Shown: positions 3,471 through 33,069 of the stretch, piece after piece
How positions within the stretch are numbered: position 1 is the stretch's first letter
Layout of the letters: each line of letters begins with the position of its first letter
Source: Candidatus Magasanikiibacteriota bacterium
GTDB taxonomy: Bacteria > Patescibacteriota > Patescibacteriia > Magasanikbacterales > UBA922
Reading direction: 5' to 3'
Assembly: GCA_018651085.1 (NCBI GenBank)
Contig: JABIEQ010000011.1
Span: forward strand, 133,598-182,622
DNA length: 49,025 nucleotides
Translations under genes and position numbers: made by a program
Notes under the pieces: model-generated
What the model saw: only the letters and a program-made list of their open reading frames with translations
Told to the model about the DNA's origin: nothing
Databases searched by the model: none

Positions 3471-4556
3471 TTATTTATTTTCTGGTGGAACCGTCATACC
3501 AAGATATACGAACCCATCTTCTGGGTGAATCCGTAGTGCTGTTGGTACTTGCCCACTTGGTAATTTTTCTGTTTCCCAACTTTTAGCTCCATTTGTGGTT
3601 GCATAAAATGTGGAACGCGTTCCAATTGTGGCTGTAAAGTAAATTTCTTGATCATTTTTTGGATTAATAGCAAATCCATAGATCTTTGCACTTCCAGCAG
3701 GAGGATTAATAGAAAGCTCTTCCCATCGGTCTCCCCCGTCTTCGGTCACGAGAATACCATACTCTGACACCCAATACAAGACATTTTGCTTATATGGATG
3801 ATATACCATTCGACGATATTGTTTTGCCTGAGGGAATGATTTTATGTTATCTAATAGAGCGTCCCAGGTAACACCACCATCTCTTGATCGGAATAAGCCT
3901 TTCTTTTTTGATGCAATGTAGACCGTTTTTTCTACAAATGGATCAAAAATTACATTGTGTAGATTTGTCTTTTTAAATCGTACAAGCGTATCCCAACTTA
4001 CTCCCTCGTCAATACTTTGGTGGACCCCTCCATCACTGTCAACAAGCATGATTTGATATGGAGGAAATGGACTAAATGCGATTGATTGAACTCTTACCGT
4101 ACTTCGTGATTCACGATATACATTTTTCCATGAACGGGCACAATCAGATGATTTAAATACTGTACTTCCAACTGAAGCGTACATTGTACATTTATCCTTT
4201 GGATGAACCGCCATGGCATAGATGAAACCTGTATTTAATGGCGCTCCTACCCCTCGCCAGGTTTTTCCATTGTCATAGGTAAAAAATAATCCTTGTCCTC
4301 GTGTTGCCCAATACATAGTATCTGGATCTTGTGGATCACCTTCTAATCTATACACACTTGAGTTTGAAAGATCTTTATTTCCGTCAACGGTTGGTTCTGT
4401 GGCAATTTTTTTCCATTCTTCTCCTTGGCTTGTTGAGACAAACATTCCTGCACTTCCACTTGTGCCGCCTTCGTTAAATGATACACACCCTGCACCTAAA
4501 AAGATAAGGGCAGCTCCAATGAGGACACTTGTTTTAATATAGGTAGACGATGTCAT
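3471..4556 (-). CDS. Putative lipoprotein with Asp-box/BNR repeats (VPS10/YCF48-like beta-propeller)
   Basis: Signal peptide ending LGAG-C; repeated S/T-x-D-x-G-x-T/S-W boxes (TYDNGKTW, SIDEGVSW, SRDGGVTW, TEDGGDRW, TTNGAKSW). Start placed at MTSST (4556) rather than 4589. Confidence 0.8.
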   Translation of the reverse strand: MTSSTYIKTSVLIGAALIFLGAGCVSFNEGGTSGSAGMFVSTSQGEEWKKIATEPTVDGNKDLSNSSVYRLEGDPQDPDTMYWATRGQGLFFTYDNGKTWRGVGAPLNTGFIYAMAVHPKDKCTMYASVGSTVFKSSDCARSWKNVYRESRSTVRVQSIAFSPFPPYQIMLVDSDGGVHQSIDEGVSWDTLVRFKKTNLHNVIFDPFVEKTVYIASKKKGLFRSRDGGVTWDALLDNIKSFPQAKQYRRMVYHPYKQNVLYWVSEYGILVTEDGGDRWEELSINPPAGSAKIYGFAINPKNDQEIYFTATIGTRSTFYATTNGAKSWETEKLPSGQVPTALRIHPEDGFVYLGMTVPPENK

Positions 4557-4575
4557 AGTGTAAACATTATATAAC

Positions 4576-5523
4576 TTATGGAAATGCAATAAGAATTTCT
4601 TCTACTAATAATTTTGGGTGTACATTTTGTCGTAATCCTTCTTTTGCTTCAGTAATTCTTTTCGTCACGTTTAAAATATCCTTTATCGGTATTGATACTT
4701 GCGTATGTTTATGCACAGTATGCTCATGAAGTCCTGAATGTGTAAACAATGCATCTCGAAGTACCATTTCCCAAATAGATAGTGCTTCTACCAGTTTCCC
4801 TCTTGTTGAAATATGATCTGTTTTATCTCCAAATAATTCGTCTACAATACTCATTTTTTTATACAAGGGCTTTCCAATTAATGATACGCATCGATCTACT
4901 TCTTTTTTATATCCATTAAAGATCTCACTATCCTTTGCCCAAGATAATGCTAATCCAGGAAGTCCTCTTGCCATTTTGGCATAGATTCTTGAAAGATCAG
5001 TTTCAATATTTCTTTTTTCTAATGCTTGTTGTATTTTTGTTTCCTCCACTTCGTGAAGATATATTGATTGCACTCTTGAACGGATTGTTTGTGGAAGGGC
5101 CTCAACATCATGGGTTAGTAAAAATAGTATTGTATGTGCCGCTGGTTCTTCTAACGTTTTTAGTAATCCGTTTGCAGCATTTGCATTCATTTTTTCTGCG
5201 CCATCAATAATTGCTACTTTATACTTTCCAAGGTACGGGCGCTTATGCACATATGATCGTAATGTTCTTATCTGCTCAATATCTATATGTTTTTTAAGCT
5301 TCTCTGTCTTTTTGTTCACTTCTTGCGTAACAGTGACAATATCCGGATGTGTGTGTAGTTTTTGAATTGAACATTGAAGTATTTCCGCGACAATATGTTT
5401 GATGAGGGGGTGTTTTCCTACATGTTTAGGCCCTACAATTGCATATGCATGACTTAAAGACTCTTTTTCACTGAGTGCTTTAAAAAATGCTTGTGCCTTT
5501 TCGTGCCCAATAATCTCATCCAT
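4576..5523 (-). CDS. holB: DNA polymerase III subunit delta-prime
   Basis: HAYAIVGPKHVGK, HPD, AANGLLKTLEEP, TIRSR motifs. Confidence 0.92.
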   Translation of the reverse strand: MDEIIGHEKAQAFFKALSEKESLSHAYAIVGPKHVGKHPLIKHIVAEILQCSIQKLHTHPDIVTVTQEVNKKTEKLKKHIDIEQIRTLRSYVHKRPYLGKYKVAIIDGAEKMNANAANGLLKTLEEPAAHTILFLLTHDVEALPQTIRSRVQSIYLHEVEETKIQQALEKRNIETDLSRIYAKMARGLPGLALSWAKDSEIFNGYKKEVDRCVSLIGKPLYKKMSIVDELFGDKTDHISTRGKLVEALSIWEMVLRDALFTHSGLHEHTVHKHTQVSIPIKDILNVTKRITEAKEGLRQNVHPKLLVEEILIAFP

Positions 5524-29470: not shown

Positions 29471-29618
29471 GTTTAGTGTTTATCTATCTAAGTACCTGAA
29501 GTGTATATGATGCTTGGTTTTGCTGCAACCTTACTATATCTTGACTTTTTTCTCTTTTTGTGGGTATTATGAGATTGGAAGTTGTTCCGTAGGACCCCTA
29601 AAAGAAGGAGAATGGGTC

Positions 29619-30002
29619 ATGAAGAAATTGTTAGGAGTTCTCGCTGTTTTATTTGCCGCCGCCCTCATCATTGGAAGCGCTGTGACAGCCGGCGTGGTGG
29701 CAGGTCAGGTCAAATGCTACTACCACGACGTGGTAGAGCAGAAGACCATCATTAAGGAAGGCCTCTCCCCGAAGATGTGCATCGCGAAGCACCTCTTCTA
29801 CGAAGAGAAGATCGGTGAGTTTCTCAACAAGAAGGACGCCGTCATCAAGGCCCAGAAGGACCTCATTGCTTCACAGCAAGAGATGATTGGTCTTCAAGAG
29901 GGCAAGAACGACTTTGCGAATCGTCTTCGGGATGAAAACCAAAGGCTCATCAAGGCTCAACAAGAGCTTCTTGACCAAAGGACCTTCGGAGATACACCGT
30001 AA
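29619..30002 (+). CDS. Hypothetical exported coiled-coil protein, GC-rich
   Basis: AAGGAG SD then MKKLLGVLAVLFAAALIIG signal/TM; heptad repeats; upstream TTGACT-18-TATTAT promoter at 29541-29570. Confidence 0.7.
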   Translation: MKKLLGVLAVLFAAALIIGSAVTAGVVAGQVKCYYHDVVEQKTIIKEGLSPKMCIAKHLFYEEKIGEFLNKKDAVIKAQKDLIASQQEMIGLQEGKNDFANRLRDENQRLIKAQQELLDQRTFGDTP

Positions 30003-30094: not shown

Positions 30095-30121
30095 AAAACA
30101 GCCCCGTTATGGGGCTGTTTT
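30095..30121. terminator. Bidirectional intrinsic terminator
   Basis: AAAACAGCCCC-gttat-GGGGCTGTTTT between convergent genes. Confidence 0.85.
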
Positions 30122-30132
30122 TTTAAGGGATA

Positions 30133-33069
30133 TCATCTAATACCAACGTCTTTAAATTCTATTGAAGCAATTATCTCTTCAAATTCTGATGGAATCGTTT
30201 GTATTTCTAATATATTATCATCTATCTGTATTTCTATCCCTTCATAGGTTATACCTTCTTTTTCTACTCTAAATAACACAGCATTATACTCTCCTATAAT
30301 AAGAGTTGTGCCTTCTTTTCCTCGTAATGTTTCTTTTATAAACACATCAACCCCCTCAAATATTTCTTTTTGAGGATTTTTTATTATTACGTTACCTTTT
30401 TTATGTTCTACCTGGGTCCACGACTGTGGGTAAGAAAATGTTATTCCAAAAAATTCTTCACTACTATATATATTCTTTTTTTCTTGTACTTCCTCTTCCA
30501 AGGCTGTGATTCTTTCTTCAAGAGACCCAACAAGTTGTTGGCGTATTTGTGCAGGGCTTACTTCTTCAATAGGTGTTGGAACTACATACGAAGATCCACA
30601 TCCAGCTCCCACTCCAATAAGACTTGCAGCCATTAGGGCAAATCCAGCGACAATACTTAAATATCGCTTATTTGTCTCCCCTTTTTTAACATTTCTTTTT
30701 TCCACTGATGCAATTCTTTTTTTCGTTGCAATAAGTGCACTGGGATTAAGAGAAACACTGTCAATTCCGGATTGTACTAAAAAATTTGTAAACTCAGGGT
30801 ACTCACTTGAAGCCTCTCCACAAATGCTTACTTTTCTCTTATGCTTATGTGCTACATCTATAATATCTTTTACTAATCCTCTTACAATCTTATTTTTTGT
30901 ATTATAAAACTCTGCAAGGCTCTTTTTACTACGTGCCTCACCCACTATTTCTCTCATTTTAGTGTCTATTCCAATACTAAAACCATCAAACAGCTTTGCA
31001 AAATCTCCTGCCAAAACGGCATTTGAAGGTATTTCACACATGACCGTAACTTTCAGTCCATGATCACCTCTTTTTACCCCATACTTTTCCATCTGTTTAA
31101 GGACTTTTTTTCCTTCTTCTGGTGTTCTACAAAATGGTACCATCAACATGACATTATGTAATCCCCACTGTTCTCGAACTTTTTTAATGGCATCACACTC
31201 TAATTTAAATGCAGGTGTATATTTTTTATTATAATACCTACTTACACCACAAAAAGAAGCCCCTGTTTCTTTCTTTTTATCTTCAAATAATTCTCCACCA
31301 AGGAGTTTTTTATATTCGCTTGCACTCTGATCACTTAGTTGTATAGTTACTTCTTTTGGGTATGTTGCCGCAGCAACCTTTGCAATACCTTCAGCAAGCT
31401 TATCTACTCCGTACTGATTTTTCTTACTATACCCTTTTGTGATTTCTTGTATTTGTTTTTTAATCTTTTTATTCTTAAGTGTGAGATAGTTACTTAACGC
31501 AAGTGGATGCACCTTTACTTCACTTGCTAATATTGATTCCATTTTGATTAGTCCTACTCCATCATGAGGGAGGTCTGAAAGATTAAAAGTATCGGTTGGA
31601 TCTCCAACATTTATCATTATTTTTGTTTGTGTCTTTGGAATATCTTGTATTAAGGTCTTTTTTACCTCGTACGGAAGAAACCCTTCAAAAACACCACTTT
31701 TTTCTCCTAAGCCACCACTCACGGTTATCTTTTTATACTTTTTCAATGTCTTTCTGGCATTCTTTACTCCTACTATTGTAGGAATTCCAAGTCTTCTTCC
31801 TACAAGGGCAGCATGACTTGTTTTTCCTTCCTCTTCCACGATAATTGCTGAGGCTATACGCATCAAAGGCTCCCACTCACGTGTCGTTGTTTTTGTTACT
31901 AGAACATCTTTTGCTTTAAATTTCTTTAGATCTTCCAAGCTGTCGAGTACACATACTTTTCCTGCCCCGATTTTCTGCCCAATCGTTGTCCCATCAAGAA
32001 TTTTCTTTCCAGTCTTTTTTAGAAGATATGTTTCTAAATTGCTTCTTTTTTCTTTTATATCTACTGTTTTTGAACTTGATTGCACAATATATAATGTACC
32101 GGTCTTTCCATCCTTTACCCATGCTATATGTTGTGGTATTTTACATATTTCTTCAATTCTCATTCCCCATTTTGCAAGCGTTATGATATCTCCATTATTG
32201 ATCGAAGATTTTTCTTGTTTTGTTTTTGGTACTACAGCTTTTTTTGTCCCTACATTTTTTCCACAAATACGTTTTGTGTCTTTTTTTGTAATGTTTTTTC
32301 TTATAATGGCTTCTTTTCCTTTTTTTACTCCTTCTTTAAATATATGAAATTGATCAGAGACCATGTTCCCTGTTACTCCATATTCACCAAGTCCGTACGT
32401 TGCATTAATTAACATTACTCCATTCATTCCTAATTCTGTATCTAAAGTAGATATCATGCCATTTGCTCCATTACTCGCATCAATCATTTGTTGTATTCCT
32501 ACAGACAATCCTACTGTCATGTGGTCATACCCCTTTTTTTCTCGATATACTAATGCTCGGTCACTAAATAACGAAGCTATACATCTTTTAACAGCATGAA
32601 GAAGTGCCTTTTCTGTTGTAATATTTAAAAAACTATCTTGCTGACCCGCAAAACTTTCTTTTGGCGTATTCTTTGATGCCACACTTGGACGTATCATTAC
32701 GGCACCGTATCGCTTATGTAATTTTTTGTAGGACTTTATCAATGCTTTTTGTACATTATTTGGAAGATCTTTTTCTAAGATGAGGTTTCTAATATTTTTT
32801 CCAATTTTTTTCAGTTCTACTACATTTCTTATATCAACCTCTTTTAGCATTCCTTTTATCTTTTTGTCTATATTATGTGTTTTCAAAAATTCCCAATATG
32901 CCGTGGTTGTCAGGGCAAATCCGTCTAAGAGGTTCATTTCTTTTTTAGAGACACTTTTATGTAATCTCCCGAAATCAGCATGTTGTTTTCCAACTAAAAA
33001 ATCATCATTTTTCTTGATGTCTTTAAACCAGGCAATATACTGCCCATTTTTTTGTTGTCTTTTTGCCAT
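30133..33069 (-). CDS. Degenerate PEP synthase (PpsA)-like protein fused to TM/lipobox and extracytoplasmic domain
   Basis: SFAGQQDSFLN, GLGE, KTSHAA, MCEIPSN, FDGFSIG, GIDSVSLNP show PpsA ancestry; many catalytic residues replaced; C-terminal about 180 aa starting RYLSIVAGFALMAASLIGVGAGC. Confidence 0.85.
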   Translation of the reverse strand: MAKRQQKNGQYIAWFKDIKKNDDFLVGKQHADFGRLHKSVSKKEMNLLDGFALTTTAYWEFLKTHNIDKKIKGMLKEVDIRNVVELKKIGKNIRNLILEKDLPNNVQKALIKSYKKLHKRYGAVMIRPSVASKNTPKESFAGQQDSFLNITTEKALLHAVKRCIASLFSDRALVYREKKGYDHMTVGLSVGIQQMIDASNGANGMISTLDTELGMNGVMLINATYGLGEYGVTGNMVSDQFHIFKEGVKKGKEAIIRKNITKKDTKRICGKNVGTKKAVVPKTKQEKSSINNGDIITLAKWGMRIEEICKIPQHIAWVKDGKTGTLYIVQSSSKTVDIKEKRSNLETYLLKKTGKKILDGTTIGQKIGAGKVCVLDSLEDLKKFKAKDVLVTKTTTREWEPLMRIASAIIVEEEGKTSHAALVGRRLGIPTIVGVKNARKTLKKYKKITVSGGLGEKSGVFEGFLPYEVKKTLIQDIPKTQTKIMINVGDPTDTFNLSDLPHDGVGLIKMESILASEVKVHPLALSNYLTLKNKKIKKQIQEITKGYSKKNQYGVDKLAEGIAKVAAATYPKEVTIQLSDQSASEYKKLLGGELFEDKKKETGASFCGVSRYYNKKYTPAFKLECDAIKKVREQWGLHNVMLMVPFCRTPEEGKKVLKQMEKYGVKRGDHGLKVTVMCEIPSNAVLAGDFAKLFDGFSIGIDTKMREIVGEARSKKSLAEFYNTKNKIVRGLVKDIIDVAHKHKRKVSICGEASSEYPEFTNFLVQSGIDSVSLNPSALIATKKRIASVEKRNVKKGETNKRYLSIVAGFALMAASLIGVGAGCGSSYVVPTPIEEVSPAQIRQQLVGSLEERITALEEEVQEKKNIYSSEEFFGITFSYPQSWTQVEHKKGNVIIKNPQKEIFEGVDVFIKETLRGKEGTTLIIGEYNAVLFRVEKEGITYEGIEIQIDDNILEIQTIPSEFEEIIASIEFKDVGIR

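Follow-up and report, generated by a model that had tools for sequence, protein, structure and literature searches.

A putative pseudoenzyme form of phosphoenolpyruvate synthase, joined to a membrane anchor and a PsbP-like outer domain, in a marine Magasanikiibacteriota lineage

The 49,025-nucleotide stretch of contig JABIEQ010000011.1 analysed here (Candidatus Magasanikiibacteriota bacterium, assembly GCA_018651085.1), hereafter the window, carries a homologue of phosphoenolpyruvate (PEP) synthase, PpsA, whose chain continues in frame past the enzyme into a basic stretch, a hydrophobic helix, a lipobox-like motif and a further domain. Residues of both active sites that are invariant in relatives are replaced in this copy, and selection has held the reading frame open. 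The fusion itself is the old and normal form of PpsA throughout the family to which the organism belongs, and it occurs there with intact catalytic motifs; only the dead state is unique to this species-level lineage. It is probable, if far from certain, that a dead but folded PpsA body is kept as the carrier, or cytoplasmic part, of a membrane or lipoprotein module that is still needed. The features concerned are the following.

30133..33069, minus strand: whole open reading frame of the PpsA homologue with membrane anchor and outer domain, 978 amino acids, stop codon at 30133-30135
32038..32991, minus strand: ATP-grasp (nucleotide-binding) domain, residues 27-344 (Pfam PPDK_N, 260.9 bits)
31711..31917, minus strand: mobile (central) phospho-carrier domain, residues 385-453 (Pfam PEP-utilizers, 72.6 bits)
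30700..31641, minus strand: PEP/pyruvate-binding TIM-barrel domain, residues 477-790 (Pfam PEP-utilizers_C, 138.3 bits)
30598..30699, minus strand: putative signal-anchor made of basic stretch, helix and GAGC, residues 791-824 (sequence; transmembrane helix and Cys in 119 of 119 homologues)
30481..30555, minus strand: predicted long helix (stalk) of the outer part, residues 839-863 (helix 16-40 of the AlphaFold2 tail model)
30136..30477, minus strand: predicted PsbP/Mog1-like beta-sheet domain with an invariant Y-P-x-x-W, residues 865-978 (AlphaFold2, Foldseek, VIA-align and a sub-threshold PsbP_2 match)
30095..30121, minus strand: terminator-like hairpin directly past the stop codon
33128..34573, minus strand: pyruvate kinase gene (pyk), 58 nucleotides upstream of ppsA on the same strand (Pfam PK, 371 bits)

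The 978 codons run without a stop or a frameshift, as an earlier, sequence-only reading of this DNA had stated; at about 0.07 stops per random codon, a rate taken from the base composition (about 36% G+C), such a frame would be open by chance with P ~1e-31. The identical protein sequence was found on 18 contigs, and the contig pieces of three further marine runs (X7, X8 and X9) hold no differing letter inside the gene. Thus, neither the open frame nor the fusion is a sequencing or assembly error, an origin of the fusion that the sequence-only reading had considered.

The enzyme part has the three-domain architecture of PEP synthases (ATP-grasp, mobile His domain and PEP-binding barrel), in the same order as in the PpsA family (TIGR01418/NF005057), and can be aligned with the solved members over residues 10-795. 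Its top solved relative is the Neisseria PpsA (2OLS; 575 bits, residues 10-785), followed by two archaeal PpsA structures (9DAE and 8A8E). Moreover, the protein passes both NCBIfam PEP-synthase equivalogs, NF005057 with 821.2 bits (cut-off 598) and TIGR01418 with 805.3 bits (cut-off 739.75). Annotation pipelines will therefore credit the organism with a gluconeogenic PEP synthesis that it very probably lacks. Unlike other members of the family, however, the window copy scores about 30% lower on the family models (821 bits against 1192-1220 in relatives); three fused relatives reach 1154-1220 bits on the two PEP-synthase models.

Motif changes were read in alignments to 2OLS, 9DAE and 8A8E and to 19 relatives, where all the substitutions listed by the sequence-only reading were seen. 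In the ATP-grasp domain, the family motif VGGKNASLGEM has become VGKQHADFGRL in the window, VRSSATAEDLP has become IRPSVASKNTP, DIEWAKDG has become HIAWVKDG and QARPETV has become QSSSKTV. In the barrel, GLAREEF is replaced by GLIKMES, VRFSDFK by IQLSDQS, ENPMLGFRG by KETGASFCG and GSNDLTQ by GIDTKMR. Residue by residue, G28K, K29Q, S128P, E133K, D134N, D314H, E316A and R332S hit the nucleotide/Mg site at columns that are invariant in the 19 relatives and conserved in the three solved structures; the Q-A-R-P-E motif also carries E334K, and eight positions of the S-S-A-T-A-E-D-L motif are altered. The PEP/pyruvate site shows R509K, R577Q, K582S, N601E, P602T, R607C, N702D and D703T. Within E-N-P-M-x-G-x-R-G (residues 599-609) seven invariant positions are altered, R607C among them, C-G-Q-A-P-S-D has Q752E, P754S and D756E, and TDPDW of the mobile domain reads TTREW. 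Retained are R127, Q330, T417, H419, E691 and C749, so that the T-S-H carrier motif and the barrel Cys and Glu are kept as in the rest of the family. Altogether, 82 of the 271 columns invariant in the 19 relatives are altered, as against 0-15 when each relative is left out in turn.

The lost acidic and basic residues are those which, from PPDK and Enzyme I, we take to be the Mg ligands and the phosphate and carboxylate binders of both sites. Literature searches (open full texts, without supplements) aimed at the roles of active-site residues in PPDK and Enzyme I found no open paper stating them. A preprint on P. furiosus PPSA describes a three-domain shuttle mechanism and a catalytic Cys of the barrel (10.1101/2022.08.11.503304). 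With replacements at invariant columns of both sites, the two catalytic centres look dead, as had been proposed, and ordinary PEP-synthase activity has very probably been lost. As judged from these replacements, the protein fits the definition of a pseudoenzyme, that is, catalytic residues absent and selection on the gene; nothing on a pseudoenzyme PEP synthase was found in the literature searched.

The T-x-H phospho-acceptor deserves a separate comment. T417-S-H419 (31813-31821) is retained and aligns to the TSH or TCH of the relatives and of 2OLS, and the codon of His419 does lie at 31813-31815. Since about 70% of the formerly invariant residues are kept, two given ones survive about half the time, and the retention is uninformative. 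Moreover, the residues that would be needed to load and unload His419 are replaced on both sides. The retained T-x-H is thus no evidence for a phospho-relay, and the relay role that the sequence-only reading had drawn from it is left without support. The Lys-richness remarked upon in the same reading is real, Lys making up 14.6% of the enzyme part against 8.1-12.6% in the 19 relatives; AT-biased relaxed drift would account for it no less well than a surface function.

The window PpsA is the only match to TIGR01418 (PEP_synth) and the only match to PF01326 (PPDK_N) in its 947-kb, 99% complete genome, and a second, intact ppsA, which the earlier reading had considered, is missing by both models. 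No PPDK was found in this genome, where the only match, of 26 bits, falls on the mobile domain of PpsA itself, and the PpsR/PSRP regulator (PF03618) was not found there either. The genome does encode enolase and pyruvate kinase, the latter being its sole link between PEP and pyruvate. The enolase (G000:C17:1566-2405, outside the window) was reported with one TAA inside the matched stretch, though its open frame has 426 amino acids. On PEP metabolism in Magasanikbacteria, or on a transmembrane PEP synthase in Patescibacteria, the literature searched held nothing relevant.

The decay is private to one lineage and affects the enzyme part only. A search of 5.8 billion clustered proteins gave no sequence whose identity to the window PpsA falls between 49% and 100%. 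Its own cluster (90% identity) has five members, of which four are identical over their lengths and the fifth (P0002) has two tail changes, R843P and V847D. The runs that hold the protein form nine rows from three named studies, all of them labelled as marine or seawater metagenomes, six rows being possibly the source itself; no RNA data set is listed among them. Among the 20 aligned sequences (19 relatives and the window copy), the window copy is the most divergent in the enzyme part (rank 1 of 20; mean identity 0.50 against 0.64-0.72), and on a maximum-likelihood tree of this part its terminal branch measures 3.17 changes per column, the median being 0.4. For the tail, its rank is 6 of 20, and its mean identity of 0.22 falls inside the range of 0.19-0.28. 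In an even, class-wide sample of 200 genomes (match in 134 of 201, the window genome included), it scores 806 bits on TIGR01418 against 1082-1223 bits for the 120 other full-length matches.

Comparison with DnaE places most of this change late. The neighbouring DnaE (residues 1-709) is 85% identical to that of a same-genus genome and 66-73% identical to those of three other family members, whereas for the PpsA match the identity is 47% throughout, in the same-genus genome and in those three alike. Thus, most of the PpsA divergence postdates the split within the genus. Because the nearest relative is only 47% identical, synonymous sites are saturated in comparisons with relatives. In 12 of the 19 relatives' loci, with flanks of only about 1.5 kb, pyk lies beside ppsA; this conserved pairing argues that the window PpsA is an orthologue that diverged in place and not an old paralogue. 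The window pyruvate kinase, for its part, is 60% identical to that of the same-genus genome G001 and 55-59% identical to those of other genera, so that pyk may also be fast-evolving in this genome, or the genus may be deep.

Whether this divergence is neutral was addressed by simulation. Coding sequences of five of the 19 relatives were mutated until 29.6% of the codons had changed residue, with 100 runs for each mutation spectrum. Under a uniform spectrum, a run met a mean of 18.1 nonsense events (range 5-32); under a threefold AT bias, the mean was 23.6 (12-36). None of the 200 runs was stop-free. The intact frame is therefore held open by selection. The replacements are also mild: at the 82 altered columns, the mean BLOSUM62 score is -0.18 and 59% of the changes score zero or above, as against -0.72 +/- 0.18 and -0.78 +/- 0.18 in neutral walks from same-genus codons, of which one in 300 and none in 300 reached the observed value. 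Invariant Gly, Trp, Tyr, Pro, Cys and His columns have changed in 15 of 79 cases, compared with 67 of 192 for the other residues. The clustering of the changes and their excess of multi-step codon changes, detailed below, likewise speak against pure drift. Three of the 271 family-invariant columns lie in the tail, and none of these is changed. Hence, the body is still selected as a reasonable protein in which the motif regions are free, or pushed, to change, and the decay is strongly relaxed but not neutral. Of the neutral decay unique to this genome that the sequence-only reading had envisaged, the uniqueness holds, at the level of the species lineage, and the neutrality does not.

The fusion has a quite different distribution from the dead state. 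Forty related genomes were searched with the window protein; 31 of them and the window genome matched, including all 24 genomes of the same family (f1). At the loci of 19 relatives, the open frames have 977-1163 amino acids and the match reaches about residue 973 of the query; beyond this set, G018 gave a further full-length match (38% identity), and contig ends held several partial ones. All 20 aligned sequences show the barrel, a basic stretch (consensus E-K-T-L-G-K-K-G-K-K-T-N-K), the hydrophobic helix, small residues, an invariant Cys and the outer domain. A protein database search gave 1355 matches at E <=0.001 among the 7999 candidates scored, and the best 119 of these, the window protein's own cluster being excluded, were taken as the homologue set. 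The helix and the Cys are found in 119 of 119. The box reads LGAGC in 77 and is another [LIVFA]G[AGSTMV]GC type in nearly all the remaining ones, a couple excepted, and at least 100 residues follow the Cys in 117. Catalytic motifs are intact in 108-118 of the 119. In the database, the fused homologues are named only 'phosphoenolpyruvate synthase'; they have 974-1076 amino acids and come mostly from Candidatus Magasanikbacteria. The window copy thus shares with them the place beside pyk, the basic stretch, the transmembrane helix, the [LIV]G[AG]GC box and the PsbP-like tail, and differs from them in its catalytic motifs.

In the class-wide sample, open frames of at least 980 amino acids were found, among the 120 other full-length matches, only in four genomes of family f4 (4 of 4, 990-1015 amino acids) and in G156 (1065 amino acids, an unverified case); the remaining full-length matches have 787-886 amino acids. 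In f8, another family of the same order, two genomes encode an unfused PpsA, of 785 and 795 amino acids, which ends ...E-K-K-I-G-K exactly where the extension begins, and no downstream lipoprotein gene was found beside ppsA in these two genomes. Taken together, the frame lengths across the class and the unfused f8 proteins indicate that the fusion is a derived, stable trait of f1 and f4. All the relatives are kin, and counts across them are not independent. The fusion of transmembrane helix, lipobox and PsbP-like domain is therefore an old and normal form of PpsA in the family, and not a repurposing tied to a dead enzyme as had been supposed, since the same fusion is found in relatives with intact motifs. 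The literature searches found no description of a fused PpsA.

Two side observations concern the C-terminal part of these proteins. In four genomes of family f50 (G080, G141, G188 and G224), the PpsA match ends at about model position 660 in open frames of 838-865 amino acids, which suggests a different C-terminal third. In 90 of the 119 fused homologues (for example L003, L004, L005 and L008), the tail is closed by an end piece of about 40 residues with four Cys, C-x-Q-x-I-T-Y-A-R ... C ... P-T-P-C-D-V-P-x-G-W-x-x-C, which is absent from the window copy. The motif recurs, in 3-6 tandem copies, in other proteins that look secreted (P0146, P0204 and P0209), and no Pfam family covers it.

The extension of the window copy beyond the usual end of PpsA amounts to 183 amino acids, comprising anchor, lipobox and outer domain. 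Past residue 790 come the basic stretch KRNVKKGETNKR, the hydrophobic helix YLSIVAGFALMAASLIGV, G821-A-G-C824 (30598-30609, as previously located) and then 154 residues. Positive charges lie on the enzyme side of the helix and acidic residues past Cys824, a pattern that predicts an inside N-terminus and an outside C-terminus, in line with the membrane tether proposed earlier. Cys824 is invariant in all 20 aligned sequences. In the window copy the tail has no other Cys, as in 21 of the 119 homologues, and Cys824 can thus not serve an internal disulfide there.

Several features liken this segment to the classical substrates of Lgt and LspA: a basic n-region, a hydrophobic region of about 20 residues, small residues and an invariant Cys. 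Both enzymes are encoded in the window genome (Lgt, PF01790, 143.7 bits; LspA, PF01252, 88.2 bits). A crude scan for N-terminal leaders over all open reading frames of the genome gave 34 candidates, the convincing ones ending in IGAGC, LGAGC, IGGGC or VGMGC. In the window itself, the gene at 3471..4589 (minus strand, about 361 amino acids) has an N-terminal leader ending in FLGAGC, a likeness that the sequence-only reading had picked out. As the same style of box is found in these N-terminal leaders, the PpsA box belongs to the local lipobox dialect of the genome. A classical lipoprotein precursor, however, starts with its signal, whereas the putative signal of PpsA comes after an 800-residue folded enzyme, its Cys being residue 824 of 978, and no internal start is conserved. 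The invariance of the lipobox in the family argues that Cys824 is probably diacylglycerol-modified by Lgt. Cleavage into two products at the internal lipobox, as the sequence-only reading had suggested, may also take place. The literature searched held nothing on an internal lipobox, or on the lipobox in the Candidate Phyla Radiation.

Residues 824-978 were modelled with AlphaFold2 on the 20-sequence alignment. The model (mean predicted local distance difference test score 86.8) opens with a 25-residue helix, after which come a sheet of nine strands and a short helix. Foldseek gave six matches at E <=0.001, with BT_1490 at 1.2e-5 and the spinach and cyanobacterial PsbP at 8e-4 to 9e-4; overall, the matches with PsbP-fold proteins lie at E 1e-5 to 1e-3. 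With VIA-align, run against 48,161 chains, proteins of the PsbP/CyanoP/Mog1 fold (including BT_1490, LpqN, MTC28, DcrB and Tsi3) superposed with Z 10.7-8.3 over about 105-112 residues, from BT_1490 (Z 10.7, root-mean-square deviation 3.4, 112 aligned) and CyanoP 2XB3 (Z 10.3, 2.6, 108 aligned) through LpqN (Z 8.9) to Mog1 (Z 8.3); DcrB gave Z 6.7 and the outer domain of PknH Z 5.3. At the sequence level, Pfam PsbP_2 (PF18933) scores 17.5 bits on the window tail, below its threshold of 27 (E 0.0043), and it matches 5 of the 20 aligned tails at E up to 1. According to the model, the tail thus has a PsbP/Mog1-like fold, in agreement with the PsbP-like outer domain of the sequence-only reading. 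Sequence identity to these proteins is only 6-17%, and the window domain differs from them in sitting on the C-terminus of a cytoplasmic enzyme. Several bacterial envelope proteins of the PsbP fold are lipoproteins or are secreted.

A profile of the tail retrieved 964 proteins at E <=0.001 among 1.84 billion representatives; 15 of the 150 listed were inspected. Besides PpsA fusions and fragments, these include P0204 and P0209, which have the same domain behind a transmembrane anchor. The first, a stand-alone relative, reaches the PsbP_2 threshold (27.9 bits against 27). In P0180, the domain stands behind a type IV pilin-like leader (N_methyl, 27.3 bits), from which it appears that the module is used on other surface carriers. 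These three proteins support both the PsbP-like assignment and the outside location. The function of the outer domain is not readable from its fold.

These data can be combined as follows. In the family, the chain would begin with a cytoplasmic PpsA of about 795 residues, to which a short basic stretch and a transmembrane helix with [LIV]-G-[AG]-G-C would connect an extracytoplasmic domain of the PsbP-like type. Everything past the usual end of ppsA resembles a full lipoprotein precursor that has been appended to it. As an internal signal-anchor, the helix would insert the chain so that the enzyme stays at the cytoplasmic side of the membrane and the PsbP-like domain projects outwards. Lgt would lipidate the Cys, and LspA may cut before it; a PpsA anchored by its tail and a PsbP-like lipoprotein would then arise in equimolar quantity. 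In this marine species, PEP synthesis would have become dispensable and the catalytic constraint would have been lost, the PEP-to-pyruvate flux being left to the adjacent pyruvate kinase. We infer that truncating mutations were still purged because they would abolish the outer module too, which is conserved to a normal degree. Lacking its own translation start, this module depends on an upstream chain and an anchor, so that the 800-residue body could not be discarded; as a misfolding leader of that size would be harmful, replacements would have to be mild. The body would then persist as a folded, non-catalytic cytoplasmic domain under relaxed selection. In its boldest form, which we advance only tentatively and do not expect to hold in full, this idea states that in Magasanikbacteria an 800-residue enzyme takes the part of the 'n-region' in a lipoprotein signal peptide whose internal lipobox (at about residue 825) is processed to yield two equimolar products, and that in the window gene the enzyme half is dead and kept only to make and insert the lipoprotein half.

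Several observations weigh against the idea of a dead carrier for a lipoprotein module. Loss of activity and processing of the lipobox are both read from sequence alone. The box has Gly at position -3, with Leu, Ile or Val at -4, unlike the textbook consensus, which has Leu, Val or Ile at -3 (PMC12462473), and our literature searches met no case of LspA or Lgt acting about 820 residues from an N-terminus. The changes cluster, with 35 adjacent pairs against 24.5 +/- 3.4 (reached in 21 of 10,000 permutations), and 33 of the 82 need two or three nucleotide steps, as against 17% expected at one rate; both could reflect positive selection for a new function and not simple loss. The excess change is near-uniform (0.30-0.36) over columns that are invariant, 90-100%, 75-90% and 50-75% conserved, which looks close to neutral, and the body could be a mere spacer. 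The tail evolves fast in all members (19-28% mean identity), so that the finding of no acceleration there comes from a test with little power. Finally, the tail might be started on its own from a GTG that lies in frame at V791, 12 codons ahead of the basic stretch.

If the clustering and the two-step codons stand for directed remodelling, they would fit an uncleaved, bitopic, receptor-like protein in which the dead body has gained a role of its own as scaffold, adaptor or phospho-carrier, linking the outer domain with PEP metabolism or with pyruvate kinase, much as the sequence-only reading had inferred. We regard this as unlikely, though it would also accommodate the residual purifying selection on the body, the retained T417 and H419, the adjoining pyk and the occurrence of tail-fold domains as outer parts of membrane proteins such as PknH. 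However, relatives with an intact enzyme have the same architecture, which was thus not built for a dead body, and the foldability of an 800-residue carrier explains the mild replacements. Survival of the T-x-H is expected by chance, the residues for phosphorylation and dephosphorylation of the His are replaced at both sites, no PpsR-type regulator was found in the genome, and neither the 5.8 billion clustered proteins nor the class sample contain another lineage on this route. The near-uniform excess of change recalls instead a young pseudogene, its enzyme part drifting neutrally, its frame open for lack of time and neither half mattering. The restriction of the decay to one clonal population agrees with it, and the Lys enrichment and a low GC content at third codon positions (0.236) fit AT-biased drift. 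The simulations make it very improbable, as none came to the observed divergence with fewer than five nonsense events; moreover, there is no frameshift in 978 codons, the replacements are milder than those of neutral walks, the tail keeps all three family-invariant residues at a normal divergence, and the gene has its terminator-like hairpin past the stop and AAGG, a weak ribosome-binding-like site, 5' of its start.

Remodelling could also have yielded a PEP-utilising enzyme with altered chemistry, for this superfamily is known to have been re-used, as in rifampicin phosphotransferase or PigC/RedH; His419, E691 and C749 are retained, and a Lys has appeared beside the lost motif Lys (G28K next to K29Q). 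Both active sites are, however, hit at once, D314H, E316A and the loss of N702-D703 come together with the loss of four basic residues (the ligand roles being presumed), and no sister lineage carries the same new motifs, as a working new family usually would; we give this explanation hardly any weight. Much the same holds for two genes read as one, in which the tail would be translated from the GTG at V791 as an ordinary lipoprotein. The product from V791 would resemble a lipoprotein precursor, and some database entries begin near this residue, though most look like contig-end fragments. Yet no stop separates the two parts in any of the 20 loci or 119 homologues, no start codon is conserved, each column having one in a minority of the loci at most, L004, L005 and L009 have no ATG, GTG or TTG between barrel end and helix, no Shine-Dalgarno-like run precedes the GTG, and the two f8 genomes have no such gene downstream of their unfused PpsA. 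With no conserved start, and none at all in those three loci, a separate tail gene with an internal start was rejected.

Leaving aside the window copy, the PEP synthase of an entire family of ultra-small bacteria appears to carry at its C-terminus an anchor whose lipobox is strictly conserved and, beyond it, a domain that faces outwards. Were the internal lipobox processed, the range of substrates accepted by Lgt and LspA would widen, and a single reading frame would supply both a cytoplasmic and a surface product, which is rare in bacteria. The dead copy would show that the outer module is worth keeping without the enzyme, and how, through a domain fusion, an enzyme body of no further use can become fixed in a genome that is otherwise being strongly reduced (947 kb). 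If the dual-product reading were true, the window gene would be a natural dissection of an enzyme/lipoprotein pair.

Two minor observations may be added. Proteins of about 450-525 amino acids that match only the mobile His domain (query positions of about 350-455) form arrays in many of the related genomes (G010, G019, G022, G034 and others), with up to 20 matches per genome, often in tandem on one contig (e.g., G010:C1:182-17123); with the window PpsA as query, none was found in the window genome. A small convergent open reading frame at 29514..30002 (plus strand), which has no Pfam match and is absent from the relatives' ppsA loci examined, encodes one hydrophobic helix and a coiled-coil-like tail and shares the hairpin at 30095-30121 with ppsA.

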